The position numbers and the translations under genes are program-made. The notes below the pieces were generated by a model. That model made no database searches, had not been told where the DNA came from, and worked only from the letters and a program-made list of their open reading frames with translations. A DNA stretch of 64,000 bases from Vulcanimicrobiota bacterium (GTDB taxonomy: Bacteria; Vulcanimicrobiota; Xenobia; Xenobiales; JADMJV01), in the NCBI GenBank assembly GCA_050250895.1, contig JBFWNU010000004.1, forward strand, positions 353,362 through 417,361, written 5' to 3'. This document shows positions 14,636 through 55,125 of the stretch, in pieces (position 1 is the first letter of the stretch; each line of letters begins with the position of its first letter).

Positions 14636-15381
14636 AGCAGGCTGATACCGCCGTCCACCACCAGCGTCTGGCCCTGAATCAGGTCGGCCAGGGGGCTCGA
14701 CAGAAACAGGACACTGTCGGCCACATCGTCACAGGTCAGCTTCCGTCCGGCCGTGAGCAGGTGCTGGTCGACTGTTTCGAAGAGAGCCTCGGGCAAGGCT
14801 TTAGTCGATTGGGTTCGCACCAGCCCGGCCAGCACGACATTGAAATTGATCTGCGGAAACTCCAGAGCCAGGTGACGCGTCAGGCTCTCCAAAGCAGCTT
14901 TCGAAGCCCCGATCATGCCATAGTTCTCGATGGCTTTGCGAGCTCCGTGGCTCGACAGGCTCACCACCTTGGGTCGTCCCGAACCGGCTTGCATCCAGGG
15001 CAAGGCGGCCTGCACCAGACTCACCAGGGCCATGGCGTTGACGTTCATGGTGGTCTTGAACTGCTCCGGAGTGATCGAGCGCAGCGAGTGAAAACCGCCC
15101 CGGGCCACATTGCTCACCAGGATGTCCAGTCGGCCGAATCGTTGACCCACAAAGTCGAGCATGGCCTCAATGTCCTCGGCTTCGCCGATGTCGGCTTTGA
15201 CCACCACCGCGTCTCGGCCCAATTGCTGCACCTCTTCGGCCACCTGCTCGGCGGCCCTGGGCGAGGCCAGATAGTTGATGACCACGTCGGCCCCGGCCCG
15301 AGCCAGCTTGAGGGCGCAGGCCCTCCCGATGCCGCGCGAGGCTCCCGTGACCAGCGCCACCTTTCCGTCCAATTCGATCAT
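14632..15381 (-). CDS. Short-chain dehydrogenase/reductase (FabG-like)
   Basis: 249 aa; Rossmann motif VTGASRGIG near N-terminus; 4-bp overlap with PKS stop. Confidence 0.9.
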   Translation of the reverse strand: MIELDGKVALVTGASRGIGRACALKLARAGADVVINYLASPRAAEQVAEEVQQLGRDAVVVKADIGEAEDIEAMLDFVGQRFGRLDILVSNVARGGFHSLRSITPEQFKTTMNVNAMALVSLVQAALPWMQAGSGRPKVVSLSSHGARKAIENYGMIGASKAALESLTRHLALEFPQINFNVVLAGLVRTQSTKALPEALFETVDQHLLTAGRKLTCDDVADSVLFLSSPLADLIQGQTLVVDGGISLL

Positions 15382-18300
15382 GCGCCGATTCGGTTGGGGA
15401 CGCCGAGCCAGGCCAGCCGATAGTCATGGGCCCGCGCCATGAGCTGGCCATCGTCCCCCCAGAGATGAATTTCGAAGCGCTCCTCGCCTATCCATTGCAC
15501 CCTGACGACACAGCGCTCGCCCGGGCGGGTGAGGCGCCCCACCCACAACTCGCCGATAGTCGCTGGCACCGTGTGCCCTTCGCGCACGCTCTTCCAGGCC
15601 AAGATTCCCGCCGCATAGAGACATCCGTCCAGGATGGCCGAGGGCAGCCGCCACCCTACTGTAGAGCGGTGAGAGCCGGCCAGTTCCACCAAGGGTGGGG
15701 CCACCAGTTCGCCCCAGAGAGTCTCTCCCTCTATTTGATAGCGTCGCAGCGTTCGCAACGAGGGCCCGTGGTACATCTGACCCGAGTCGGAATAGGCGAC
15801 CGGCTCCCATTGGTCGGGAACCTCGGGGCAGGCCAGTGACTCGACCGGCATCTCGTTCACCAACTCTACCTCGAGCAAAGTTCGGCGCGCCTCTAACACC
15901 GTTCCGTCGCGGGCCAACTGGGCATAGAGCAGCCTCACCGTATTGTCGTCACGAGCCACTTCCACCTGGCGTGGACGCCCCTCGTGGAACTTCAGAAACC
16001 CTGCCGGTCGGACTCGCCTCAAGCCGATGGGGCCAGGACCTCGAGATTGCGCCTCGCAGGCCAACTCGAGGGCCACCACCAGGGGTAGTACCGGAACGTC
16101 TTCCACCCGATGGTCTCGCAAGAAGGCTTCCTGCTCGGGATCGAGCCATACCTGATTGGAGGTTCCCAGCAGGGGTCGGGCGGCCTGCTGCGTCTCGAAC
16201 AGCTCGGCGTGATAGAATCTGCGGTAATAGTGCTCATCGGTGATGAGCACCTCGGCTCTGGGGGCGCCGGCCTGCAACTCGGCGATGAGGTGAGCGACCC
16301 CCTCGGCCGCTGGCATGAAGTTCATGTTCACTAACTCGAGACCCAGCTGGCTCTCGCCTTTGACGGCCATTCCGACATCGCCCCAGGCGTGCCAATGAAA
16401 GGTCACCGCGCCGACCTCCGGCCGTTGCTGACGATAATAGGCCACTAGCTTGGCCATCATCTCGTTGGCGGCCGAATAGTCGGCGTGCCCGTTGGCCCCG
16501 AACCGACCACTGATCGAGCCGAAGGCGACAAAGAAGTCGAGCGGGTCTGCAGCCATCAGGCTCATCAAGTTGTGGGTTCCCAGGACCTTGGCTCCCAAGC
16601 ATTCCCCCACCTTTTGGTGGTCCTTCTGCTCGAACTTCGAATCGCGGGTGGCCCCGGCCCCATGCAGGACGCCGCGAATGGGTCCATCGGCCCGGATCGC
16701 CTGAAGAGTTTGGGCCAGCCGGTCCCGATCGCTCAAGTCGCAACTGTGATAGTGCGCTTCCAGGCCGGCTTCGTGGAGGGCCACCAGGGCCGCCTCGATC
16801 TCGAGGCCCTTCTCGACGGCTTCCCAGCTTTTGACCGGGTTGGCTGCTCCCTGAGAGCGAGCCGTATCCATCACTTCCAGCTTCAATCCACGGCGGTCCT
16901 GTAGCCAACGGGCTCGCCACTCGGGCGGATGCGAGGGACCGGGGGCCCGTCCGATGAGATGGAGCTTCAATCCGAAGCGGCCGGCCAGTTCGCGGGCGAC
17001 GTGGGCAGTGATGCCCCGGGCCCCGCCGGTGCAGACCCAGTTACCGCGCGGCAACACCGCCTGGCCGTCCCGGTCGTCCACTGGCTGGGGTTCGGCCGTC
17101 ACCAGGGCCCGTTGGCCGGCGATTTCACCGATCTCGAGCTCATAGTTGCGGTGGCAAAGCTCTCGTAGCACGCGCTGGCCAGCGTCTGAGGCACTGATAT
17201 CAGGGCCGCAGTCGATAACTTTCACGGTCAAATCGCGATGTCCGGCTACCCAATTCTCGATGCGCATCGACTTTAAAAGGCCGGCCAGAAATCCTCCGTC
17301 AGGACCCTCTATGGGCGTTCCAAAGCCGAAGCCGCCCCCGAGTCTGGTCACGGCCACCACGGTGGCCTCGTCCACCAGGCCGTCTCCCTTGACCCGCCGC
17401 AACCATTCCTGGCAGAGCCAGAACGGAGTCGTGATGCGGGCGGTGTAATGCTCTGGCCGCTCCAGTTCGCCCGGCACCCAGGCGGTGGTGATAAACAGGT
17501 GGGGTAGCGGCCCGAGCGCTTCGAGACCTCGCTTGAGTTCCGTCAAGGCCCGGTGGGTATCGAGGATATGGACCGGCCCCCTGAGGCGGCTCGCGAGTTC
17601 ACGACTCAAAGCGTTGTCTCCGATGATCAGCGAAGCTCCGCCAAGGCTGCGAGTGGGCGAGAGCGGGAGGGGACATTCGACCATCCTCATCAGGTAGCGC
17701 TGAGTCTGGTCGGGGGTCGAGCCGGGCAGGGTCCCGTGGCGCTCTTTGTAGCCGATCAGGTTGTAGAGATGGACTCCCGCTCCCTCGGCCAGGCCGCGAA
17801 GCTCTTCCAGGGTGGCCGGGTCGAGGCCGGCCTCGAGGTCTTTCCCAGGCCGCCTTTGCCAGGGAAAGACCTTGAGCGCATCGTGGCGCAGAGCCGCGCG
17901 GATGGCTTGGGATTGCGCCCGGCCACGTAGCCGAGCACTTTCATAGGCCTGCCCGCTGACGCGGGGCAGGAGCGGCGCCTCGGCCTCGGTCGGGGCCTCG
18001 GTCACCCCGATATGCTCGAGAATGTCTTTGAGGCTTCGGAGGTTGGCCAGCTCTTTGTCAGAGGTGTCTAGACCGAAGGCATCGCGCAGCTCGCCCAGCA
18101 ATTGGGTTCTTTTGATACTGTCGATGCCGAGGTCGGCCTCGAGTTCCCATTCCAGCTTGAGCGCGCTACGTGGATAGCCCGTCAGGTCGGCAACATGGTC
18201 GAGGAGAAAGGCTTGAGCGCGGGCGTCGATGGCCGTGGTGCGTGTCTTGCCGCTAAGGCTGTCTTCCCCCAGCACGCGCTCGAGGCGGGGCCGGGTCGCG

Positions 18301-21300
18301 TCGAAATGATCGATGCTTCCGAGCCCTCTCTGGGTGGTCGTCGAGCGCGCCTGGGGCAGCCGGTCGACGCATTCGAAGGCGGCTTCGAGGCGGGCCCACT
18401 GGAGGGCCCGCTGGCGACGCGGGTGGTCGACCGAAGTCACGATCACATTGCGCTCCTTCAAATTTTGGCGGGCCAGTTGAGTCAACACCTGTTTAGGGCC
18501 CACTTCGACGAGCAGGCCGACTCCGTCGTTCACGAGTTGATCCAGGAGCTGACCAAATCGGACCGGCTCGACCAGTTGCCGAACCAGATTCTGGCGGATG
18601 ACCTCGACCTGGGTAGCCGGCTGATTGGTCACGTTACTGTAAAACAGGATCGTGGGTGGACGCAGCTCGAGCCTGGCCAGCCGGGCTTCGAGGGCCGTCT
18701 GAGCCGATGCCACCAAAGGAGTGTGAAGGGCGCCCGGAACCTTGAGCCGGCGAGTGGGCATGCTGTCTTTTCTCAGCTCGCTCTCCAGGGCGGCCAGCTG
18801 ACTGTTAAGGCCGCCCACCACCGTCTGACCGGCGGCGTTATAATGGGTGAAATAAAGTCCTAGCTCGGCCACCAGAGGCTCGAGCCGTTGGGGAGGCGCG
18901 GCCACGGAAAGCAGACCTCCGTCGGGCGAGGCTGCTAGCAGAGCCTGAGCGCGGACCTGGGTCAGCTCCAGAGCGTCTTCGAAGGTCATGACCCCGGCCG
19001 CCACCAGGGCAGGAATCTCGCCAAAGCTGTGGCCACACACACAGTCGGGCCGATAGCCTTGCTCGTCGAGCACGGCGAAAGCGATCTGATCAGCGATCAA
19101 GACGGCCAACTGGGTGACCACCGGGTCGGCGTCAAGGCGCTCATCCGCTTGCCAGGCCAGGAGTCCAAAGCCAGGCAGGCCCATCTTCTCGAGGGCAGCG
19201 TCGGCCCGGCGCACCACGGCTGCCGCGGCCGCGGACCCGCTCACCAGGTCTCGCAGCATGCCTTGATACTGAGAGCCCTGACCCGAGAAAAGATAAGCGA
19301 TCCGCGGTCGAGCACGGCCGAGTTCGCAGTAGAAGATACCCTGCTCTTCGAGCAGGCGCCGGCCCTTGGCTTCGGCCAACTGGTCAGCTGCCAGAGCCAC
19401 ATTCTGGGCCAGGCGAGGCTGGTCGGGAGCCACGGCCACCAGGCGGACCGGGTCGGCCTGCGCCAGGCCCTGGCGACCCTCGCGAAGGTTGGTCGCCAGT
19501 TGGTTCGGGTCGTGGGCACTGTAGCGAGCCACCCGGGCGGTGACGGATGACCGGGGGCCGGCGCCCTCGAAGATGAGCTGGGCAGCCTGGCCGGTCTCGG
19601 CCAGGCCGGCCAGCACCACTCTCTCTTGCGGATGGCACAAGCTAGCTCTCAACAACGAGAGCATCCCCCCGGCCGCATGCAGAGCCCCGAATTGGGCGGC
19701 CAATGAGGGCAAGAGGGGCTTGCCGCAGACCCGCTCCAAAACCGGGGCCAACTCGGCCGAGGGGGCATCAGCCAGGGCAAGGCCCGGGTCAGACAAGGCA
19801 GGGCCGACCACCAATTCGAGGGCCGACTCGGGGGTGAGTCCGCTGGCGAGTTCTGCCGTGTGCAAAAGGCCATAGATTCGGTCCCCGTCCTGCTGGGCTC
19901 GGTCGAGGGTCTTGAGGATGACCACTCCGACCCCTTCGCCTGGCAACTGGGCGCTCAAACGACCTTTGAGGGCAAGACTCTCGAACCCCACCAGGTCCAT
20001 GGAGTGCTGGCCGGCCGCCACCACCACGGCTGAGCAATCGCCGCCCCGCAGCAGGTCACAACCCACCTTCAAGGCCGCCTCGGACGATGTCTCGCCCACA
20101 TCGAGAGCCAGGGCTCCACCGCGCCAATCGTGGGCTTTAGTCAATCGTGAAGCGAGAGAGCTACAGGTAAAGCCTCCCGTCTCGTCGAGCAGTGCCGAGT
20201 ATCGCTCGAAGAAAATCCGGTCGAACTGCTCGAGCAATCCGGGCTTCGAGAGGCCCAACTCAGCCAGCAGCCTGGCCACCTCACGGCGAATCTCGGCGTG
20301 GCGAAAGCCCACTTGCATCTGATTGCCGAAGTCCGAACAAAAACTCGCGCCCACCACCACGGCTGTCGAGTTTGCCTCGAGTGGGGAGCCCAGCTCTGCC
20401 AGGGCCTGATTGGTCGCATCCAACAGCATCAGCTGGACCGGATTGGCCCGCTTGACCTGCTTGGGAGGAATCTTGTGGCCGACGGCGTCGAACTCGAAGT
20501 TAGTGATGTAGCCACCGCGACGGGTGGGCGTATGCCAGGGCTGGAGCTGCTCGGCCAGGCCGGCGTCACTGGGCCAGCGACCGGCCGGCGGTTCGCCGAG
20601 TTGGGACTGGCCGCTGCCGAGCAACTCTTTCAACTCGCCCAGGTTGCGAGCGCCGGGGACGACGACGCCGCGCCCGACCACCGCCACCAGCGGCTCGTCG
20701 GCGGCCACCGGCTCGACCGGTCCGCCTGGCTCTTCGACCACCAGGTGAACGTTGAGACCGCCCACCCCAAAGGCGCTGACACCGGCTCGGCGAGTCTCTC
20801 CCTGACGGGGCGCAGGCCAATCGGACGGCTCTCGCTGGACCACGAAAGGTAGCCGCGACCAGTCCACTCCGGGGTTGAGCTGGTCGACGTTGATGGTGTG
20901 GGGAATGCCGCGGTGTCTCAAGGCCAGCACGACCTTCAACAAACTGGCCAGTCCGGCCGTCTCGAGCGTATGCCCCAAATTGGACTTGACACTGCCGATG
21001 GGTATCTGGCGTCCTTTCAGATGAGGCCCGAAAAAGGTCGACAAAGACTCGAGTTCGGTGGCGTCACCCAGCTGAGTGCTGGTGGCGTGGGCTTCGATGT
21101 ACTGGACGCTGGCCGCGTCGACTCCGGCGTAGCAACGTTGCAGCGCCTCGAGCTGTCCCTCGGCACGGGGGGCCCACAGACTGCGACCGCGACCATCCGA
21201 AGACAGACCGATCGAGCGGATCACCGCTTGCATCGAATCCCCGTCGCGGCGGGCCGCATCGGCCCGCTTGAGGACCATTGCCACCACTCCTTCGGAGCTG

Positions 21301-22088
21301 ATCAGGCCGTCGGCTTCGGCATCGAACGGGCGCGAGCCGGACGCGCTGCACGATTGGGCGTGGGAAAAGAGAATGAGGCTCTCCGTCTTGTTGTAGGAGG
21401 ACCCTCCGACGATGGCCAGGTCGATTTCGCCCCGGGTCAGAGCCAGGGCGGCCAGGGAGAGAGCCACCAACGACGAGGCACAGGCGGCGTCTACCACCAG
21501 CTGAGGGCCGGCCAACCCCAGTTGCCGGACCAGCAGGCCCGCGATCCATTGGGCCTCGAGACACGGTTTGCCTTCCCCGTCGCGGCGAGGCCGTCCGCGG
21601 CGTAGCTGGCCGGTCAGGGCTTGCATGGCGGCCTGACGCGTCTGGGTCGGCAAAGCGCGAAAATCGGGCAAGCACTCGAGCAACTCCGCCACCTGAGCGG
21701 CCAGGGTGGCTACCACCAGTTCTCCCCCCCGGGGCGTTCCTCCGGAGTGACCGGCATAGACACCGACTCGCTGGCCTTGCAGCCCGTCAGCATAGCCCGC
21801 CTCGGCCAGCGCTTCCAGAGCCACATCGCAAAAGATGCGGTGGCTCAAGTCATAGGAATCATCTCCCGAGCGGGCCTGGCAAGACTTGAGGCAGCCGCCG
21901 ATGCTGGAGTAAGTCTTTCCCACCTGACCGCGGGTCGAATCAAAGTAAAGTTCTCGGTCCAGTCGCTCGGGGGGCAACTCGCGAACCGCATCATGGCCGT
22001 TCCAGAGCAACTCCCAGAATTCGGCCGGGTTGTCCGAATCGGGCAGGCGGCAGCCGCACCCCAATATCGCGATAGGAGCGATCTTCAT
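15378..22088 (-). CDS. Type I polyketide synthase, single module: KS / KS-like / AT / ACP / KR / DH
   Basis: 2236 aa; KS DAACASS + HATST + GHT; AT GQGSQ + GHSFGE; ACP LGIDSI; KR TGGARGIT + YSAAN; C-terminal HRVEDVPVLP hot-dog motif; 4-bp overlaps with flanking genes. Confidence 0.9.
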   Translation of the reverse strand: MKIAPIAILGCGCRLPDSDNPAEFWELLWNGHDAVRELPPERLDRELYFDSTRGQVGKTYSSIGGCLKSCQARSGDDSYDLSHRIFCDVALEALAEAGYADGLQGQRVGVYAGHSGGTPRGGELVVATLAAQVAELLECLPDFRALPTQTRQAAMQALTGQLRRGRPRRDGEGKPCLEAQWIAGLLVRQLGLAGPQLVVDAACASSLVALSLAALALTRGEIDLAIVGGSSYNKTESLILFSHAQSCSASGSRPFDAEADGLISSEGVVAMVLKRADAARRDGDSMQAVIRSIGLSSDGRGRSLWAPRAEGQLEALQRCYAGVDAASVQYIEAHATSTQLGDATELESLSTFFGPHLKGRQIPIGSVKSNLGHTLETAGLASLLKVVLALRHRGIPHTINVDQLNPGVDWSRLPFVVQREPSDWPAPRQGETRRAGVSAFGVGGLNVHLVVEEPGGPVEPVAADEPLVAVVGRGVVVPGARNLGELKELLGSGQSQLGEPPAGRWPSDAGLAEQLQPWHTPTRRGGYITNFEFDAVGHKIPPKQVKRANPVQLMLLDATNQALAELGSPLEANSTAVVVGASFCSDFGNQMQVGFRHAEIRREVARLLAELGLSKPGLLEQFDRIFFERYSALLDETGGFTCSSLASRLTKAHDWRGGALALDVGETSSEAALKVGCDLLRGGDCSAVVVAAGQHSMDLVGFESLALKGRLSAQLPGEGVGVVILKTLDRAQQDGDRIYGLLHTAELASGLTPESALELVVGPALSDPGLALADAPSAELAPVLERVCGKPLLPSLAAQFGALHAAGGMLSLLRASLCHPQERVVLAGLAETGQAAQLIFEGAGPRSSVTARVARYSAHDPNQLATNLREGRQGLAQADPVRLVAVAPDQPRLAQNVALAADQLAEAKGRRLLEEQGIFYCELGRARPRIAYLFSGQGSQYQGMLRDLVSGSAAAAAVVRRADAALEKMGLPGFGLLAWQADERLDADPVVTQLAVLIADQIAFAVLDEQGYRPDCVCGHSFGEIPALVAAGVMTFEDALELTQVRAQALLAASPDGGLLSVAAPPQRLEPLVAELGLYFTHYNAAGQTVVGGLNSQLAALESELRKDSMPTRRLKVPGALHTPLVASAQTALEARLARLELRPPTILFYSNVTNQPATQVEVIRQNLVRQLVEPVRFGQLLDQLVNDGVGLLVEVGPKQVLTQLARQNLKERNVIVTSVDHPRRQRALQWARLEAAFECVDRLPQARSTTTQRGLGSIDHFDATRPRLERVLGEDSLSGKTRTTAIDARAQAFLLDHVADLTGYPRSALKLEWELEADLGIDSIKRTQLLGELRDAFGLDTSDKELANLRSLKDILEHIGVTEAPTEAEAPLLPRVSGQAYESARLRGRAQSQAIRAALRHDALKVFPWQRRPGKDLEAGLDPATLEELRGLAEGAGVHLYNLIGYKERHGTLPGSTPDQTQRYLMRMVECPLPLSPTRSLGGASLIIGDNALSRELASRLRGPVHILDTHRALTELKRGLEALGPLPHLFITTAWVPGELERPEHYTARITTPFWLCQEWLRRVKGDGLVDEATVVAVTRLGGGFGFGTPIEGPDGGFLAGLLKSMRIENWVAGHRDLTVKVIDCGPDISASDAGQRVLRELCHRNYELEIGEIAGQRALVTAEPQPVDDRDGQAVLPRGNWVCTGGARGITAHVARELAGRFGLKLHLIGRAPGPSHPPEWRARWLQDRRGLKLEVMDTARSQGAANPVKSWEAVEKGLEIEAALVALHEAGLEAHYHSCDLSDRDRLAQTLQAIRADGPIRGVLHGAGATRDSKFEQKDHQKVGECLGAKVLGTHNLMSLMAADPLDFFVAFGSISGRFGANGHADYSAANEMMAKLVAYYRQQRPEVGAVTFHWHAWGDVGMAVKGESQLGLELVNMNFMPAAEGVAHLIAELQAGAPRAEVLITDEHYYRRFYHAELFETQQAARPLLGTSNQVWLDPEQEAFLRDHRVEDVPVLPLVVALELACEAQSRGPGPIGLRRVRPAGFLKFHEGRPRQVEVARDDNTVRLLYAQLARDGTVLEARRTLLEVELVNEMPVESLACPEVPDQWEPVAYSDSGQMYHGPSLRTLRRYQIEGETLWGELVAPPLVELAGSHRSTVGWRLPSAILDGCLYAAGILAWKSVREGHTVPATIGELWVGRLTRPGERCVVRVQWIGEERFEIHLWGDDGQLMARAHDYRLAWLGVPNRIGA
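15381..16226 (-). other. PKS dehydratase-like hot-dog domain, approx. residues 1955-2236
   Basis: HRVEDVPVLP (HxxxDxxxxP variant of the DH HxxxGxxxxP motif) at ~1993-2002. Confidence 0.55.
16344..17651 (-). other. PKS ketoreductase (KR) domain, approx. residues 1480-1915
   Basis: NADPH-binding VCTGGARGIT (~1685-1694) and catalytic YSAAN (~1871). Confidence 0.75.
17994..18236 (-). other. PKS acyl carrier protein (ACP) domain, approx. residues 1285-1365
   Basis: Phosphopantetheine attachment motif ADLGIDSI (Ser ~1324); only one such motif found. Confidence 0.75.
18399..19301 (-). other. PKS acyltransferase (AT) domain, approx. residues 930-1230
   Basis: FSGQGSQ at residues ~934-940 and active-site GHSFGE at ~1019-1024. 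Confidence 0.8.
19854..20693 (-). other. PKS second KS-like segment lacking catalytic Cys (chain-length-factor-like), approx. residues 466-745
   Basis: KS-like N-terminal half (VAVVGRGVVVPG, NPVQLMLLDA, LDVGETSS in place of Cys motif, GEGVGVVILK) that then loses KS similarity. Confidence 0.5.
20733..22082 (-). other. PKS ketosynthase (KS) domain, approx. residues 3-452
   Basis: Active-site Cys in DAACASS (residue ~203), His in EAHATST and NLGHT. Confidence 0.8.
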
Positions 22089-46033: not shown

Positions 46034-46795
46034 CTAACGTCCCAGCGCCTGGCGTACCAACTGCTCTCGCTCGTGGCCGCCAGGGTGTTGCATATCGGCC
46101 TCCAGGCCGCCCAGGAACGCCAGTGCCGGAGCCGGATCGCAACCAAGCTGAGCCAACACTCCGGCGGCGAAGGCGTCGGCCTCCCGTTCGTTCTGGTGGC
46201 GACCTTCGCGCAAGACCTTGAAGCTGAGGCTCTCTAGCTGGTCGTTGCCCTGGCAGCCGGCCAGGAAGGCCTCGAGCCCGGCCACGCCCGCCTTGTCGCG
46301 ATGCTGGCGATGGCCCTCTTCGTGGGCCAGAGTGAAGAGCAAGATGGTGTCGTCGGCCATGTCGCCGGCCAGGCTGGCGGTGCCCAGATACATTTCGCGG
46401 CTGTCGGACTGGGCGTCGATGAAGCTCGACTCGAGCACCACCGGGGCCGGAAAGCTCGACTGACTGGCCTGGGCCACCTGGCTCCAGGCCTGCTCGACTC
46501 GCGGGTCCTGGCGGTGCGGTAGGCTGGAGTACTGGTCGGCCAGATTATCGGCAAAAGCGGCATCTTCGGCCTGACTCACCAGGTTCTGGCCGATCTCTTG
46601 ACTGAGGGCCGCCAGGGCCGGCACTTGGCTGGCTCCGGCAGCGGCCGAAACGGCCAGGACCATCTGTTGGAAACGACGCGCCTGGTTACTCGGTTCGAAG
46701 CTATCGGCCGGCAAAGCCTCGAGCTGGTCAGCCGGGACGAGGGGACGGGCCCGTTCGCAGAAGGCGCGTTGAAACTGGAACGTGTCGATTCTCAC
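46034..46795 (-). CDS. Hypothetical HExxH protein (possible zinc metallopeptidase)
   Basis: 253-aa ORF; single HExxH motif in TLAHEEGHRQHRD; start uncertain. Confidence 0.45.
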   Translation of the reverse strand: MRIDTFQFQRAFCERARPLVPADQLEALPADSFEPSNQARRFQQMVLAVSAAAGASQVPALAALSQEIGQNLVSQAEDAAFADNLADQYSSLPHRQDPRVEQAWSQVAQASQSSFPAPVVLESSFIDAQSDSREMYLGTASLAGDMADDTILLFTLAHEEGHRQHRDKAGVAGLEAFLAGCQGNDQLESLSFKVLREGRHQNEREADAFAAGVLAQLGCDPAPALAFLGGLEADMQHPGGHEREQLVRQALGR

Positions 46796-48745: not shown

Positions 48746-48994
48746 TTAACGGGTTCTTAAATAACGGAGAAAATCCCACAGGCCAGCGAAACGGTAGTCG
48801 CCGTCGATGTAATGCTCGATGACGTAGAAGGCGAAGTAGTAGGCCCGGGCAAAGGCCCAGATAGCCAGCGCCAGCATCCCGGCTACCATGGGCTCGGGAT
48901 GAAGCAGCAGCAGATTGAGCGCCGCCATCAACCCCAGCAGTAGAAAAAGCACACCTTTGGCATAGAGCCACTTCGGATTCTCGAGATCGCCCAT
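48746..48994 (-). CDS. Small two-helix membrane protein, hypothetical
   Basis: Frame 48746..49060 trimmed to internal ATG ~48994 to leave a divergent intergenic region; two hydrophobic helices. Confidence 0.35.
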   Translation of the reverse strand: MGDLENPKWLYAKGVLFLLLGLMAALNLLLLHPEPMVAGMLALAIWAFARAYYFAFYVIEHYIDGDYRFAGLWDFLRYLRTR

Positions 48995-49040
48995 CACCCG
49001 ATTTATACCCCCAGGTTGCACTTCTCGGAAGTTTTCCACA

Positions 49041-49056
49041 AGGATTTGAGGATTTT
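49041..49056. repeat. Tandem 8-bp repeat AGGATTTG/AGGATTTT with a further GGATTT copy at the start codon, upstream of the beta-helix/ATPase pair
   Basis: Read directly from sequence in a locally AT-rich stretch preceding 49074. Confidence 0.3.
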
Positions 49057-49073
49057 TCAAGGAATCTAAGGGA

Positions 49074-50843
49074 ATGGATTTATTGGGCTTGGTAGAGCAA
49101 GCGGCCGATGGAGACGTGCTGCAGCTCGAGGGTGTCTATTCTTTGGCCGAGCCGCTGGTCTTGACGCGGGCAGTGAGCCTGGTGGGCCAGGCGGCCACCA
49201 TCGTGTCCGAGAGTCCTGACGTGGTGGTGCGGCTGGTGGGTCCCGGCCCTTTCAGTTTTCATGACATCCGTTTCGAATATCGCGGCCAAGAGCCGGCCCG
49301 GGTGGTCTGGCTCGAATCGGGTCGAGCCGACTTCGAGCGCTGTCGCTTCAGCGGCGGCCATTGGAATGACGAGCGTGGCTATGGCTGCGGTCTGCACCTG
49401 GGCGGCCAGAGCCAGGCCAGAGTGCGCCAATGCCAGTTCTTTGAAAACGATGTGGGGGTGCTGGTCGACCACCAGGCTCGGCCTTTACTCGAGGGTTGCC
49501 GGTTCACCGATAATCGTCTCGACGGTTTGCGTTTTCGTGGCTATTCGGGCGGTCGGGCGGTGCAGAACGAATGTCGAGGCAACGGCTGGTCGGGTATTTC
49601 GGTGGCCGGCGAGGCGACCCCCGAGCTGGTCAGCAACTTCTGCTCCGAGAACGGGAGCAGCGGTATCCTCTATCGCGAGCGAGGCAGCGGCATCGGTTCG
49701 TCCAACGAGTGTTCGCACAACGCCCACCACGGCATCAGCTTGAGCGAATACTGCCGCCCCTTGCTCAAAGCCAACCAGTGCGAAGAGAACCAGCTCTGCG
49801 GCATCGACCTGGGGGATCAGTCGCGCGGCGTGTTGCAATCGAATCTTTGTTGCGGCAACGGCGTGCACGGCATGCAGGTGCGCGATGAGGCCGATCCCGT
49901 CCTGGAAGACAACGAGTGCATGGAGAACGCCAGCTCGGGGCTGGCCATTTTCGGAGCCTCGCGAGCCGTGTGCCGGCGCAACGTGTTGACCCAGAACGCC
50001 TGCTACGGCCTGCAAGTGAGCCAGGACGCCTCGCCCGTGCTCGTCGAGAACCACGCCGTGGGTAATCGTCTGTCGGGGTTCGGCTTCTTTGGCCAGGCGG
50101 GCGGCCTGGGGGCCGCCAACGAGTGCAGCGAAAACCACGGCTACGGGGTGCAACTGTCGGGCACCGCAGCCCCCATCCTGGGCGATCAGCTCTGCACTCA
50201 AAACCAGCGCGGGGGCCTCCTGGCAGCCGAAGAGAGCCGTCCCCTCGTGCGGGGCGGCCAGTTCAGCAAGAACGAAAAGCACGGCCTGGTGGTCAACGAC
50301 CGCTCCCGCCCCCTGTTGCACGGAGCCAAAGCCGCCAGCAATGCCGAAGACGGCGTGGTCTTCGTGGGCCGAGCCGGGGGCGAGGCGCTGGCGGTCGAGG
50401 CCAGCGAGAACGGCCGCCACGGAATGTCCATCGGCCCCAAGACCTCACCCCTGCTCGAAGGCTGCAACTGCAACCAGAACCAGGCAGCCGATACCAGCAA
50501 CCAATCGGGCAAGGCCCGCACAGCCTCGCGGGGCGGCGAACACGAACCACTGCCCGAGGGCTTCGAGGTGGCCATCGAAAGCGGCGAATCGCTGCGTCTG
50601 CCGTTCGAACCCAAGGGAGTGGAAAAGTTGATTCTCGAGGCTCTACTAAAGCACGGTCGCTTGAGCGAGGCATCCCTTGCCAAGGTGGCCCGCACCCGCC
50701 GCATCGGGGGAGCCATGGAGAACTTGCTCGAGCGCCTCAATCAGGCCGGGCTGCGCTATATTCGGCGCGACGGCGAGGGGCCCGAGGGCAACGTCTACGC
50801 GCTCAGCCGCGACACCAACCAATCAGGGAGACAAGCATGCTAG
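49074..50843 (+). CDS. Cytoplasmic right-handed parallel beta-helix repeat protein with C-terminal helical domain
   Basis: 589 aa; no signal peptide; more than 12 tandem ~22-residue repeats with a recurring N.C..N...G pattern (NECRGNGWSGISV, NFCSENGSSGIL, NECSHNAHHGISL, NQCEENQLCGIDL, NLCCGNGVHGMQV, NECMENASSGLAI ...); last ~100 residues non-repetitive and helical; start could be TTG ~49083. Confidence 0.7.
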   Translation: MDLLGLVEQAADGDVLQLEGVYSLAEPLVLTRAVSLVGQAATIVSESPDVVVRLVGPGPFSFHDIRFEYRGQEPARVVWLESGRADFERCRFSGGHWNDERGYGCGLHLGGQSQARVRQCQFFENDVGVLVDHQARPLLEGCRFTDNRLDGLRFRGYSGGRAVQNECRGNGWSGISVAGEATPELVSNFCSENGSSGILYRERGSGIGSSNECSHNAHHGISLSEYCRPLLKANQCEENQLCGIDLGDQSRGVLQSNLCCGNGVHGMQVRDEADPVLEDNECMENASSGLAIFGASRAVCRRNVLTQNACYGLQVSQDASPVLVENHAVGNRLSGFGFFGQAGGLGAANECSENHGYGVQLSGTAAPILGDQLCTQNQRGGLLAAEESRPLVRGGQFSKNEKHGLVVNDRSRPLLHGAKAASNAEDGVVFVGRAGGEALAVEASENGRHGMSIGPKTSPLLEGCNCNQNQAADTSNQSGKARTASRGGEHEPLPEGFEVAIESGESLRLPFEPKGVEKLILEALLKHGRLSEASLAKVARTRRIGGAMENLLERLNQAGLRYIRRDGEGPEGNVYALSRDTNQSGRQAC

Positions 50844-52141
50844 CCAGTTTAAGCCGCGACACGGCCACTTCGATCATCAACGCGCTGCGTTCGGGAACCG
50901 TCCCTTTTGACGGGCTCGAGCACTATGCGGTGGGCCTCGAGCGCCAGATGGAGGTGCTGCGCGAGCAGCGCGAGTACGTGGCCGGTGGTCACTCGGCCTA
51001 TAAGTGCATTCGGGGCGCTTACGGGTCGGGCAAGACCTTTCTCTCGAGCCTGGCCGCGGCCGAAGCTGCCGACGCCAAGTTTCTGACCAGTAAAGTGGTC
51101 ATCTCGGCCGCCGATACGCCGCTCCATAAGCTCAAAGAAGTCTATCGCCGCTTCTGCCAGAACCTTTCTCTGGCCGACCGCCGAGGGGGCGCCCTGCAGA
51201 CCCTGGTCGACCGCTGGCTCTATCGCCTCGAGGACCAGGTCATCGAGGTCGATGGAGTGGCTGAGGACGACCCCGACTTCGCCGAGGTGGTGGCCCGCAA
51301 GGTCGACATGAGCCTGGTGCGCATCGGAGAACGGGCGGGCCGCCTGGCCGTCACCCTCAAAGCCTATCACAAAGCCAAGTACGACAGTCGCTTCTCGGAC
51401 GCACGGGGCTTGCTCGATTGGGTCTCGGGCGAACCCAAGGTGGGGGCCGACGTCAAGCGCCTGGCCTCGGTGACCGGCCAGATCGACAACACCGACGCCC
51501 TGGTCTTTCTGCGCGGTTGGCTGGAACTGGCGGAGGCGGCCGGCTACGCCGGGGTGTTGCTGGTGCTCGACGAAGTCGAGACCATCCTGCGCCTGCGCCG
51601 GCCCGAGCGGCTCAAATCGCTCGAAGTGTTGCGCCAGTTGATCGACGCCGTCGAGAATCAAGAACTGCCGGGGTTGCACCTGCTGATCACCGGCACCCCC
51701 GACTTCTTCGAAAGTTCCCAGGGGGTCCCGTCGCTGGTGCCCCTGCACGAGCGCATCCGCCAGACCCACCGCGACGGCGAGCCCGAGAACTTTCGCCAAC
51801 CCCAGATCACGTTGCCCACCCTCGACGCCGAGCGTCTGCGCCAGGTGGCCACGCGGGTGCGGGCCATCTATCCGGCCGAACATGGCGAGCGGTTGAGCAA
51901 GCGAGTACCCGACAGCTATGTGTTGCAACTGGTGGACCAGATGACGGCCGGCTTCGGTGGTCGCATCGAGGTGTTGCCGCGCTTGTTCCTGCGCGAATTC
52001 GTGCACATCCTCGACCTGGTCGACCAGCACTCAGACTACGATCCGGCTCAAGCCTATCGCTTTGATGTGGCCGGACTGAGCGAACTCAGGCCCGAAGAGG
52101 AAGAGGCCATTCAAGCGGCCGGGCGCGAGGTTCTCATCTAG
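50837..52141 (+). CDS. P-loop NTPase (AAA-like ATP-binding protein; possibly BrxC/BrxD-type DUF2791 fold)
   Basis: Frame 50123..52141 trimmed to ATG 50837, preceded by GGGAGA and overlapping the upstream stop as ATGCTAG; Walker A GAYGSGKTFL, Walker B LLVLDEVE; C-terminal helical region. Confidence 0.8.
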   Translation: MLASLSRDTATSIINALRSGTVPFDGLEHYAVGLERQMEVLREQREYVAGGHSAYKCIRGAYGSGKTFLSSLAAAEAADAKFLTSKVVISAADTPLHKLKEVYRRFCQNLSLADRRGGALQTLVDRWLYRLEDQVIEVDGVAEDDPDFAEVVARKVDMSLVRIGERAGRLAVTLKAYHKAKYDSRFSDARGLLDWVSGEPKVGADVKRLASVTGQIDNTDALVFLRGWLELAEAAGYAGVLLVLDEVETILRLRRPERLKSLEVLRQLIDAVENQELPGLHLLITGTPDFFESSQGVPSLVPLHERIRQTHRDGEPENFRQPQITLPTLDAERLRQVATRVRAIYPAEHGERLSKRVPDSYVLQLVDQMTAGFGGRIEVLPRLFLREFVHILDLVDQHSDYDPAQAYRFDVAGLSELRPEEEEAIQAAGREVLI

Positions 52142-52153
52142 TCCGCGCTGCAG

Positions 52154-54103
52154 TTAGAACTGCTGCCAGAGCAGCACGCGGCTCTTCTCGGCCGGGTCGA
52201 AGACCTGATTGAGGTCGAGATTGATCAAGTAGAACTCTTTGCCGTTCTTGATGGTGGGCTTGAGCAGCGAGTCGAGATAGGCTTCGACCTTCATGTCATC
52301 GACCTTGACGGCCGGCTGAAAAGTGTGAGTCGAACTCGAAGAGGTCTTGGTGGTCTTGGACGAGAGCCCGAACCAGGAACTCTCCTTCTTCTTGTATTCG
52401 GTGGTTACCGTGTATTCCACCGGCGCGCCGGCCGAGGCCTGGGCCACTGCGGCCCAGTTGGCAACTTCGGCCAGCACCGTCTCGCGAGAAACGTTATTGC
52501 CGCGATAATAGTTGACATAGACCGTCTTGTCTTCAATAGTGAAGGGGTACTTGTCGAGCTGGAAATTGGCCGCATCTTCAACTGGGATGGCCGAGGCATC
52601 GGTATACATGTTGCCTCGCGAGAAAGCGCCTTGAATAGCCACCGAGAAGCGCTCTTCACCGGTCTCGGTGGCGGGCATTCGATGGCCTGACACCGCCAGC
52701 CCGGCCACCACCGAGTCGGCCAGCTTGGCCTTGTCGGCGGCGCTGATGATGTTGGTGGTGGTGGTGTCTTTATCGCCCCAGCCGAGGAACCGGTCGTCGT
52801 CTTCATCCTCTTTGCTGGTGGTATCGGGCAGCGTGCTCTTGGTGACATCGGGCACGCCGACCGCAAAACTCACCGAGATGGGCGTCTTGACCAGGGTGAC
52901 GTTGTCGAGGCGCAACTTTCCTTTCCCTTTGGGGCCGTTGGCCACGGCCGCTCCCACCACCGTGATGTCCTTGGCCCACAGGTCGCCTTCGGAATAGACC
53001 AGTCCGTTAAAGAAGTTGCCACTCTTGCTCAGGCCGTGAAGGGTGATATCGCCTTTGGAGACCAGCGCCACCACATCGGTGGCCGAAATCTCGGCGCCCT
53101 CTTTGATCGACACTTCACCGAGCGAGAAAATCGCGCCGTTGCCGTAGACCTTGCCGGTCACGTCGACATCGCCCCGCACATACAGCAGGCCACCGTTGAG
53201 GTGAATGTTGCCATTGACCCTGAGGTCGCCCAGGGCCTCGGTGAAGAAGTCGACCTCTAAATTGGTAAGGGTCGGCGACCCATCGAGGATCTGATCGTTG
53301 CCTTTGATCTCGTCAAGCTTGGCAAAGATGTTGTCCACATCCAGGTCGGGCATGGTCTGCTCACCCGAGTGCTCGCGCACCTCGCCGGCCACTTTGACCG
53401 AGGTATCGAGGTCGATGCTTCCTACTGCCATGACGTCGCCCATCACGGTCGAGGTTGGCCCGATAGAAACGGCCTTGTCCCCGGCAAAGTTACTGGCCAC
53501 ATGGGCCATATCCAAATCCGCCGGGTCGAGGGTGGTGGCTTTGCCGGTGTCGGCAAAAGCCTGGGTAGAAGCCACTCCTGCAACCAGCAGCCCGCCCGAC
53601 GAGGTCAGGGGTCCGGTCGAAGCCAGAGCGTTGGGATAAGGAGGGATGTAGTAAATGGCTTCCATCTGGTAGCGGGCGTTCTTGCACTTGCCCACGGCCA
53701 CCAGGTGCACGGCGCTGTCGGGAATCTGCCGGCCGTTGGCCCCCTCGACCGAGGTCGGCTCTTCGAAATTATTGGTCGAGAAGGGCAACTTCAGATCGGA
53801 GGCCTGCTTCTTGCTGAAGGTCAGCCAACCATCGGCCTCGTCAGGAGCGAAGCTGGATGGGATGTGAATGGTCTGGTCATCAGCCCGGGCCTTGCCGAAC
53901 GTCTGGTCCATCCAGATGCGTCCCAGCGCCGTGGCCACCGCCGACTCGGCCAGATTGCGGGCTTCGCGCTGGTCCACCACCGTGTTGCTGAAATTGAGGT
54001 GGAAGAAGGAAACGGCCACCACGGTAAACAGCGCCAGGGTAATGATGGTAACCAGCAGTAGAACAGAACCGATTGTGAGACCGCGTGCTCCCCTGCGAAC
54101 CAT
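52154..54103 (-). CDS. Large surface/secreted beta-helical protein with pseudopilin-like N-terminal hydrophobic segment
   Basis: 649 aa; N-terminus MVRRGARGLTIGSVLLLVTIITLALFTVVAVSF resembling minor-pseudopilin leaders; central Gly/Asn/Val-rich repeats (NGNIHLNGGLLYVRGDVDVTGKVYGNGAIFSLGEV ...). Confidence 0.65.
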   Translation of the reverse strand: MVRRGARGLTIGSVLLLVTIITLALFTVVAVSFFHLNFSNTVVDQREARNLAESAVATALGRIWMDQTFGKARADDQTIHIPSSFAPDEADGWLTFSKKQASDLKLPFSTNNFEEPTSVEGANGRQIPDSAVHLVAVGKCKNARYQMEAIYYIPPYPNALASTGPLTSSGGLLVAGVASTQAFADTGKATTLDPADLDMAHVASNFAGDKAVSIGPTSTVMGDVMAVGSIDLDTSVKVAGEVREHSGEQTMPDLDVDNIFAKLDEIKGNDQILDGSPTLTNLEVDFFTEALGDLRVNGNIHLNGGLLYVRGDVDVTGKVYGNGAIFSLGEVSIKEGAEISATDVVALVSKGDITLHGLSKSGNFFNGLVYSEGDLWAKDITVVGAAVANGPKGKGKLRLDNVTLVKTPISVSFAVGVPDVTKSTLPDTTSKEDEDDDRFLGWGDKDTTTTNIISAADKAKLADSVVAGLAVSGHRMPATETGEERFSVAIQGAFSRGNMYTDASAIPVEDAANFQLDKYPFTIEDKTVYVNYYRGNNVSRETVLAEVANWAAVAQASAGAPVEYTVTTEYKKKESSWFGLSSKTTKTSSSSTHTFQPAVKVDDMKVEAYLDSLLKPTIKNGKEFYLINLDLNQVFDPAEKSRVLLWQQF

Positions 54104-54249: not shown

Positions 54250-55125
54250 ATGAATGCGGTCAGAACCCATCGCCCGACCGCCGGGCCCACTCTCCCGGCC
54301 GCGCGCCCGCGCCCGGCCGGGCCTGCGCTCAGCGGCACCGCTGACACAGGGCTCAAGGCGCAGCGCCTCTCTGAGCTGCGCGACCAGAAACCGACCACCC
54401 CGGCGGGCCAGAACCCCACTCTCGCCAGCCAGGCCGAAAGGGCTAGGGCAGGCCTGGGCCAAGCCTTCGAGCTAAAGAAGCCGGTCACGCTCAAGAATGG
54501 AGTCACCGTGGTCAAAAGCGCCGACCTCAGCGACGGCTCGGGCCTATATGACCTGAATGTGGGCGGCCACAAAGTGGGGGTCCGTTTCGACCAGGGAATC
54601 GACGCAGGCACAAAGCTGCCGCAATTGGCCGACTACCTCGAGCAGACACCCGAACACTTGCGCAAAGAGCTTGGTTTTATCAACTTTCAGAACGGGGCCA
54701 ATCCCAAGGACGCTGAAATCGCCAAGAAGTTTGGAGTCGAAGAGTTTCAGACCTGGGCTACCGCCGATGACCACGCCATCAACGTCTACCACGGCGGAAA
54801 ATTCTTCGGTCAACGCGAGTTCGACCACGAGCTGGGCCATCTGGTGGGCGCCCGTCGCAGCGGCCACGACGAACTGGTCGACTGGGTCAATCTGCGCCAC
54901 GACCCCCACAACACACCGGTTGGTTGGGGGGCCCGCAAAGCCTACGACCATAAAGAGGTTTCTGACTACGGAAAGCTGTCGCTCGGCGAGGACTTCGCCG
55001 AGGGCTATGCCGACTACATGCAGGCTCGCCGTCAGGGCCCCGAAGCCTGGCAGGCGTTCGGACAGAAGTTTCCCAGCCGGACGGCCCTGCTCGAGCGCAT
55101 CGTGACCAACGGAGACACCCGCTGA
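54250..55125 (+). CDS. Hypothetical protein with HExxH motif (possible metallopeptidase/effector)
   Basis: 291 aa; low-complexity Pro/Ala/Arg-rich N-terminus, then globular region with FDHELGHLV; start uncertain. Confidence 0.45.
   Translation: MNAVRTHRPTAGPTLPAARPRPAGPALSGTADTGLKAQRLSELRDQKPTTPAGQNPTLASQAERARAGLGQAFELKKPVTLKNGVTVVKSADLSDGSGLYDLNVGGHKVGVRFDQGIDAGTKLPQLADYLEQTPEHLRKELGFINFQNGANPKDAEIAKKFGVEEFQTWATADDHAINVYHGGKFFGQREFDHELGHLVGARRSGHDELVDWVNLRHDPHNTPVGWGARKAYDHKEVSDYGKLSLGEDFAEGYADYMQARRQGPEAWQAFGQKFPSRTALLERIVTNGDTR

Follow-up and report, generated by a model that had tools for sequence, protein, structure and literature searches.

A beta-helix protein gene overlaps the gene of a BrxD ATPase

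We analysed a pair of overlapping genes in a 64-kb stretch of the Vulcanimicrobiota bacterium contig JBFWNU010000004.1 (the window, which denotes this whole stretch throughout). The first gene encodes a protein with a parallel beta-helix body and a C-terminal winged helix, and the second encodes an AAA+ ATPase of the BrxD family. Coordinates follow the numbering of the window, loci of relatives are named L001-L090, and representative proteins are named P0xxx. The pair comprises the following features.

49074..50843, + strand: gene of the beta-helix-winged-helix protein, the partner of BrxD (open reading frame call, 589 amino acids (aa), Pfam Beta_helix)
49074..50543, + strand: right-handed parallel beta-helix body, residues 1-490, ~16 regular 23-residue coils (DSSP, pLDDT)
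50589..50807, + strand: C-terminal domain, a three-stranded winged helix, residues ~506-578 (model fold and signature)
50826..50831, + strand: GGGAGA, Shine-Dalgarno-like, 5 nucleotides (nt) 5' of the BrxD ATG and within the upstream gene
50837..50843, + strand: ATGCTAG start/stop overlap (sequence; translational coupling)
50837..52141, + strand: brxD, 434-aa ORC/Cdc6-type AAA+ ATPase of the BrxD family (PF10923, NF033438, PADLOC)
51014..51043, + strand: Walker A motif GAYGSGKTFL, residues 60-69 (sequence)
51557..51580, + strand: Walker B motif LLVLDEVE, residues 241-248 (sequence)

Both open reading frames (ORFs), their ATGCTAG overlap, the GGGAGA site and the two Walker motifs lie where the initial annotation of this DNA had placed them. 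The -7 nt overlap of the window pair recurs in L002, L003, L004 and L008. More generally, in ~72 of 78 pairs formed by a gene for the C-terminal domain (CTD) and brxD, the distance from stop to start ranges from -32 to +4 nt. A scan of the locus for promoters and terminators returned 0 promoters, and terminators at chance level.

The window ATPase is, by its sequence, a full-length BrxD, and three libraries agree on this assignment. It matched the NF033438 equivalog with 459.1 bits against a cutoff of 350, residues 8-424 aligning to model positions 3-422 of 423. It further matched PF10923 (BrxC_BrxD, DUF2791) with an E value of 8.5e-119 and 397.6 bits against a cutoff of 22.2, and the PADLOC BrxD model with an E value of 1.5e-140 and 467 bits. 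This bears out the BrxD/DUF2791 resemblance noted initially. The PADLOC model for Shango SngB fitted the ATPase much more poorly (E 5.8e-44, 149 bits). The protein is 100% identical to NCBI entry MGE0492926.1, 'BREX system ATP-binding protein BrxD [Vulcanimicrobiota bacterium]'. Pfam also gave weak, sub-threshold AAA_16 and NACHT matches to it, no STAND Pfam model scored over threshold, and a PDB sequence search returned no solved relative of BrxD. Among 26 relatives, Walker A positions G60, Y62, G63, G65, K66, T67, F68 and L69 and Walker B positions D245, E246, V247 and E248 are invariant. The presence of the P-loop motifs GxxGxGKT and hhhhDE indicates that the window BrxD is catalytically intact.

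BrxDs of all classes, including Shango SngB, have a C-terminus in which an acidic stretch is followed by a short hydrophobic tail (for example EVLI, VVEF, ELDL or NFKL), which might serve as a docking peptide. When N- and C-termini were compared, no docking motif was seen that separates CTD-linked from CTD-less BrxDs.

The BrxD partner is a beta-helix protein with a C-terminal winged helix

The protein encoded upstream of BrxD matched Pfam Beta_helix PF13229 (E 8.5e-45, 152.6 bits, cutoff 25.9), Pfam NosD PF05048 (E 8.2e-23) and the TIGR03804 repeat (55.3, cutoff 19.45), in line with the beta-helix and NosD-type models suggested for it at the outset. It contains ~16 units of 23 residues with the pattern N-x3-G-...-N-x-C, and 20 Cys and 34 Asn in total. 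The more than 12 Cys/Asn-containing repeats described initially are therefore present, although their period is 23 and not ~22 residues. The AlphaFold model (AF2) had a pLDDT of 89 overall and of >90 across residues 1-490, where the coils are undecorated and carry no conserved catalytic loop. Foldseek searches with the body gave generic beta-helix matches only (8egr, 1e-8; AlgG 4ozy, 7e-8), and its structural neighbours include AlgG/AlgE epimerases, alginate lyases and tailspikes. The protein is 32-42% identical to its homologues. The initial annotation had described a helical domain at the C-terminus; in the model this part is in fact a three-stranded winged helix.

The N-terminus of the protein, MDLLGLVEQAADGD, is acidic and has no hydrophobic stretch, and no signal peptide or transmembrane segment was found in the window protein or in 12 homologues. 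As the start at 49074 is the first one after a stop, there is no upstream extension able to hide a signal peptide. The sequence thus supports a cytoplasmic location, as had been predicted. In further agreement with that prediction, none of the PADLOC models matches the beta-helix partner. It has no TerB match in Pfam.

The winged helix recurs at the end of diverse BrxD partners

The CTD comprises ~65-70 residues at the extreme C-terminus of the beta-helix protein and is far better conserved than the remainder. Its signature is E..hL..L..hG.lsE..L.k...tRRVgG..e.L...L...G.......G.G.eG..Y. and its topology is H1-b1-H2-H3-b2-b3. It is structurally similar to solved winged helices, which places it in the winged helix-turn-helix (wHTH) fold, and neither Pfam at E values up to 10 nor a PDB sequence search assigned it to a family. 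A CTD profile matched the C-terminus of an ORF adjoining BrxD in 84 of 87 sources from Bacteria and Archaea. Elsewhere the domain is rare: an exhaustive search of representatives gave 98 matches among 1.84 billion proteins, although its profile, derived from the beta-helix class, may overlook diverged members.

The CTD follows several classes of protein. The beta-helix class was found in Eremiobacterota-type metagenome-assembled genomes (MAGs), and a class with TPR repeats in ~69 Methanomicrobiales (Methanoregula, Methanocorpusculum, Methanolinea and others). Full-length PglZ carries the domain in L015 and L016, with the PADLOC PglZ match (E 4.8e-217) at residues 10-883 and the CTD at 904-975. 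Truncated PglZ proteins of 350-480 aa align to no more than the final ~125 positions of the PglZ model ahead of their CTD, and P0157 is a STAND-like NTPase with the same ending. The N-terminal module ahead of the CTD is thus interchangeable between type 2 PglZ, truncated PglZ, beta-helix, TPR and STAND-like NTPase. The CTD also stands at the end of P0144, P0163, P0174, P0187, P0196, P0210 and P0226, several of which have N-terminal regions of 300-500 aa outside Pfam families.

Type 2 PglZ itself ends in a three-stranded winged helix (PMC12839542). That the CTD is this canonical C-terminal winged helix was considered and rejected, since the CTD falls after the canonical tail when L015 PglZ is aligned to that of Azospirillum. 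In L015 PglZ, the canonical tail, as aligned to that of Azospirillum PglZ, spans residues 789-858, the PADLOC model ends at 883 and the CTD occupies 904-975. Azospirillum type 2 PglZ (L090) has the canonical tail only and no CTD. As the CTD is additional to the canonical tail and absent from the Azospirillum protein, it marks a subset of BrxD partners that includes some type 2 PglZ proteins. The L015 gene (7059-10004 of that locus) accordingly encodes a type 2 PglZ with two tandem C-terminal winged-helix-like segments (~789-883 and 904-975), and the CTD may have arisen by duplication of the canonical PglZ winged helix.

CTD genes co-occur with brxD in Bacteria and Archaea

To place the pair among its relatives, 100,044 species genomes were scanned with a BrxD alignment, and the best 80 of 222 relatives were taken as the loci analysed, which serve as denominators for presence in lineages. 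ORFs were called in all loci and then searched with our own profiles. Each of the 13 beta-helix-CTD genes stands no more than 5 kb from a BrxD gene, and in 11 cases it is the immediate upstream neighbour. The co-occurrence of the two genes, which the initial annotation had proposed to check, is thus borne out. BrxD follows every beta-helix homologue with readable context (L001, L002, L003 and L004). Two Eremiobacterota MAGs deviate from the usual order: their beta-helix-CTD gene is found on the other strand, 3-4 kb downstream of brxD-brxHI (L010 14545-16311, - strand; L012 15119-16966, - strand). The gene has been relocated in these loci and still stands near brxD, which shows that the linkage survives rearrangement.

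The relatives differ in the helicase BrxHI. It follows BrxD in the beta-helix triads L001 and L009-L014, in the BREX locus L015, and in L005, where the order is BrxD-BrxHI-CTD protein (PADLOC E 1e-196 to 1e-213). No BrxHI occurs in the window, in L002-L004, L007 or L008, or in any archaeal locus. A phmmer search with the L001 BrxHI gave zero matches in the 64-kb window, while it found BrxHI in nine other loci. One 1.47-Mb contig, ERZ26696514, holds two BrxD systems 375 kb apart, L004 (6172-9305) and L005 (8001-12768). L004 is a dyad of beta-helix-CTD protein and BrxD adjoining MutS2. L005 consists of BrxD, BrxHI and a 421-aa protein in which a part resembling the type 2 PglZ tail precedes the CTD, and its CTD gene comes after the helicase.

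The archaeal pairs (L017-L086) have a TPR-CTD protein of ~600 aa directly followed by a BrxD that is 38-43% identical to that of the window, and no helicase. Examples are L019 (8161-11257) and L064 (7819-11269), the latter from the complete genome of Methanoregula sp. SKADARSKE-2 (CP121470.1). The TPR-CTD and BrxD genes look like a core-genome pair of Methanomicrobiales.

A BrxD that is 52% identical to that of the window was also seen in an unusual BREX-2-like cluster, L006 (1-21296), in which no CTD was detectable. This BrxD is preceded by a 1886-aa DEAD/MZB helicase, a NERD-helicase and a 1245-aa protein without annotation, and it is followed by a PglW-like NERD-kinase and an MmeI-type methyltransferase.

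BrxD and the CTD are more conserved than the beta-helix body

Identities to the window proteins were compared for two groups of beta-helix relatives.

Syntenic relatives L003, L004, L007 and L008: MutS2 46-48%, BrxD 67-72%, CTD 60-70%, beta-helix body 27-28%
Helicase-containing relatives L001, L009 and L014: BrxD 64-67%, CTD 54-59%, beta-helix body 36-41%, MutS2 not compared

Conservation runs in parallel in BrxD and the CTD and is higher than in the housekeeping protein MutS2, whereas the beta-helix body diverges faster than MutS2.

MutS2 directly and divergently adjoins the pair in L003, L004, L007 and L008 and lies 3 kb off in the window. SLT, GGT and T2SSF genes come after the pair in relatives, and in L001-L004 and L087 the surrounding genes have metabolic or housekeeping functions. 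The archaeal block, which is strongly syntenic, contains CTP synthase, GMP synthase, histidinol dehydrogenase, aminotransferases, DJ-1/PfpI and GT2.

In the window, the pair is immediately flanked by two ORFs on the other strand.

48746-49060, - strand: small membrane ORF, divergent, upstream of the pair (ORF call)
52154-54103, - strand: 649-aa ORF, convergent, downstream of the pair (ORF call)

The ORF calls confirm the arrangement described initially, with a divergent small membrane gene upstream and a convergent ORF downstream. The 649-aa ORF, first labelled a surface protein, has a hydrophobic N-terminal segment, RGLTIGSVLLLVTIITLALFTVVAVSFF, and could be assigned to no family by Pfam or PADLOC. 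Slightly further out, the ORFs at 46034-46795 (- strand) and 54250-55125 (+ strand) contain the HExxH-like motifs AHEEGH and HELGH, respectively. Both are without a Pfam match, and the motifs suggest that they are candidate zinc metallopeptidases. Pfam scans of the larger window ORFs identified a polyketide synthase, polysaccharide export genes (Poly_export), histidine kinases, MutS2, GNATs, YdjC and GT2. The polyketide synthase is a 2236-aa type I enzyme (KS-AT-ACP-KR-DH; 15378-22088, - strand), and a polysaccharide export protein is encoded near it at 370-2886; both are unrelated to the gene pair.

The pair resembles parts of BREX and Shango systems

According to a recent BREX survey (PMC12839542), BrxD is an ORC/Cdc6 AAA+ ATPase that stands alone, lacks a DNA-binding domain and forms a tightly linked dyad with BrxHI. 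Its role is called 'distinct, yet uncharacterized', and it is treated as specific to type 2 BREX (PMC12839542). The order of CTD protein and BrxD, followed by BrxHI in sister loci, matches the pglZ-brxD-brxHI order of type 2 BREX. A genuine type 2 BREX system is encoded in L015, with PglX (E 0), PglY/BrxC (E 0), PglZ-CTD (E 4.8e-217), BrxD and BrxHI; its PglZ bears the same CTD as the window protein, and its BrxD is 60% identical to that of the window. Unlike type 2 BREX, however, the window has a beta-helix in place of the PglZ body and a syntenic housekeeping setting. Pfam scans of 18 flanking and distant window ORFs found no PglZ, PglX, BrxC/PglY, methyltransferase or DUF499, that is, no type 2 BREX core. 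Neither Pfam nor PADLOC detected a PglW or NERD-kinase among the flanking genes, which sets the pair apart from BrxD-BrxHI systems with PglW. As no other BREX gene was found in the window, this BrxD stands outside a BREX system.

A similar partial likeness holds for Shango, which is experimentally anti-phage (PMC10250203). In Shango (L089), a variable N-terminal protein, a DUF2791 ATPase and a DEAD-box helicase come in the same order as in the helicase-containing sister loci, and sister-locus BrxHI matches the SngC model (E 1e-131). In contrast to Shango, which consists of the TerB protein SngA, SngB and SngC, the window has neither a TerB domain nor a helicase and so does not qualify as a Shango locus. 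No CTD was detected in SngA with the CTD profiles.

The pair also shares its parts with STAND and ORC/Cdc6 proteins of the NLR-like, Avs type. BrxD would provide the P-loop and helical lid, the CTD the winged helix, and the beta-helix (TPR in archaea) the repeat scaffold. The difference is that in the window these parts are distributed over two polypeptides, in the permuted order repeats, winged helix, NTPase. With NosD/CASH and carbohydrate-active beta-helix proteins, the partner shares the fold and the PbH1-type 23-residue coils, but it is cytoplasmic, has undecorated coils and a C-terminal winged helix, and is paired with an AAA+ and not an ABC protein.

In the literature searched, no beta-helix or TPR partner of BrxD was described, nor was a winged helix of the CTD type described as a BrxD-linked domain. 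What is new here is the architecture of the BrxD partner, while the annotation of the ATPase as BrxD was already available at NCBI.

Origin and possible function of the pair

The architecture of the pair and its BREX ancestry are well supported. On balance, we lean towards the view that it descends, in reduced and remodelled form, from the PglZ-BrxD-BrxHI arm of type 2 BREX and combines a sensor or adaptor with an AAA+ switch. Derivation from this arm is argued because the type 2 PglZ of L015 has the same winged helix and the sister loci keep BrxHI. This revises the initial proposal of an unrelated new module. In a rough neighbour-joining tree of BrxD, the beta-helix-associated proteins form one clade with helicase-containing and helicase-less subclades. 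The window BrxD is basal within the helicase-less subclade, and the BrxDs of BREX systems with PglZ-CTD are the sister group. The simplest history starts from type 2 BREX with a PglZ-CTD protein, in which the PglZ body was replaced by a beta-helix, followed by loss of BrxHI in the window lineage.

We propose that the CTD would act as the coupling element between the variable module and a BrxD oligomer. It may dock on BrxD and so contribute in trans a winged helix of the kind normally present in cis in NTPases of the ORC/Cdc6 and STAND types; alternatively, it may bind DNA, or do both. The tight translational coupling would favour co-assembly of the CTD protein with BrxD. The undecorated, fast-evolving beta-helix could present a variable surface for recognition of a ligand or protein, like the repeat arms of NLR/STAND sensors, and the TPR arm could do likewise in archaea. 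Once a ligand is recognised, ATP binding and hydrolysis by BrxD would lead to an oligomeric or DNA-bound state, which in turn would interfere with foreign DNA. The motor or effector of the sister triads would be BrxHI; the window has no evident effector. Exclusion of phage or mobile DNA is the function that we consider most likely for the pair, with our confidence in it evenly balanced. An anti-phage or anti-plasmid role is favoured by the ancestry, the swapping of modules, the sensor-like fast divergence and the analogy to Shango.

Several observations weigh against this proposal. Synteny with MutS2, SLT, GGT and T2SSF is kept although MutS2 itself is only 46-48% identical, so the locus has long been inherited vertically, unusually for defence genes. 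PADLOC found no match among ten window neighbours, so the pair does not lie in a defence island, and a scan of viral contigs found no relatives; the enrichment in defence islands that had been envisaged initially is thus contradicted. In Archaea, the TPR-CTD and BrxD genes lie within the syntenic block in 68-69 of 69 loci. Pfam scans and the BrxHI search found no nuclease or other effector, methyltransferase or helicase in the 64-kb window. A BrxD-CTD fusion protein was looked for and none was found, and the BrxD tree has no bootstrap values.

Much of this would fit a domesticated role outside defence, in which the helicase-less pair is a stable core-genome complex acting on a host DNA or protein substrate. 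It could, for example, take part in remodelling associated with the chromosome, replication or repair, or be an ATP-driven chaperone or assembly factor, with the beta-helix or TPR part as scaffold. The conserved chromosomal place that the pair takes in L003, L004, L007 and L008, beside MutS2 and housekeeping genes, the higher identity of BrxD than of MutS2 (67-72% versus 46-48%), the position of the Methanomicrobiales pairs in a biosynthetic block, and the lack of defence neighbours, viral copies and an effector gene in the searches made all speak for such a role. However, all identifiable relatives are parts of conflict systems (BrxD, BrxHI, PglZ and Shango SngB), and the swapping of N-terminal modules, together with a beta-helix that diverges faster than MutS2, is typical of immune sensors. 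The BREX helicase is also kept in sister loci, and a second BrxD-BrxHI-CTD system is possible in the same genome, as L005 and L004 show. We regard domestication as a tentative alternative that is rather unlikely to hold. A role in the envelope or in polysaccharide metabolism is very improbable. In this view the beta-helix protein, secreted or periplasmic, would be carbohydrate-active or a NosD-like maturation protein, and the neighbouring ATPase would energise it, as in NosD-NosF. The Pfam NosD and Beta_helix matches, the epimerases, alginate lyases and tailspikes among the structural neighbours, and the GT2, YdjC and Poly_export genes elsewhere in the window point towards such a role. The NCBIfam matches to NosD and AlgG are weak (TIGR04247, 27.7 against a cutoff of 300; NF038177, 26.6 against 700), and Pfam scans of the larger window ORFs found no nosF/nosY or alg genes nearby. 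This role is effectively excluded because there is no signal peptide, the scores fall far under the NosD and AlgG cutoffs, and the protein has a winged helix and an AAA+ and not an ABC partner. The missing transmembrane segment in the window protein and its 12 homologues and the undecorated coils argue in the same direction, as does the occurrence of the CTD-BrxD layout with PglZ, TPR and STAND modules. Coincidental adjacency of two unrelated genes has a negligible probability, given the pairing in 13 of 13 beta-helix loci, the presence of the CTD beside BrxD in 84 of 87 sources and the conserved stop/start overlap.

A wider reading, which we hold with less confidence still than domestication, is that the CTD is a dedicated BrxD-coupling adaptor. 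It would define a modular, hitherto unrecognised family of the form 'X-wHTH + BrxD +/- BrxHI' in Bacteria and Archaea, whose helicase-less forms were exapted for housekeeping. If exaptation took place, the helicase-less beta-helix pairs of Xenobia-like Eremiobacterota and the TPR pairs of nearly all sampled Methanomicrobiales would be core-genome split switches of the ORC/STAND type, with a role in host DNA or protein transactions. If the CTD is such an adaptor, BrxD in type 2 BREX would act through direct coupling to the protein encoded upstream.

Whichever of these applies, the locus shows BrxD, one of the least understood BREX components, outside BREX and with a different partner. The small conserved winged helix common to diverse BrxD partners provides a testable hypothesis for how they are coupled, and the two-gene versions should be far easier to reconstitute than a six-gene BREX system. 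Finally, the syntenic, helicase-less pairs in the core genomes of two distant lineages point to a possible domestication of a defence ATPase module.

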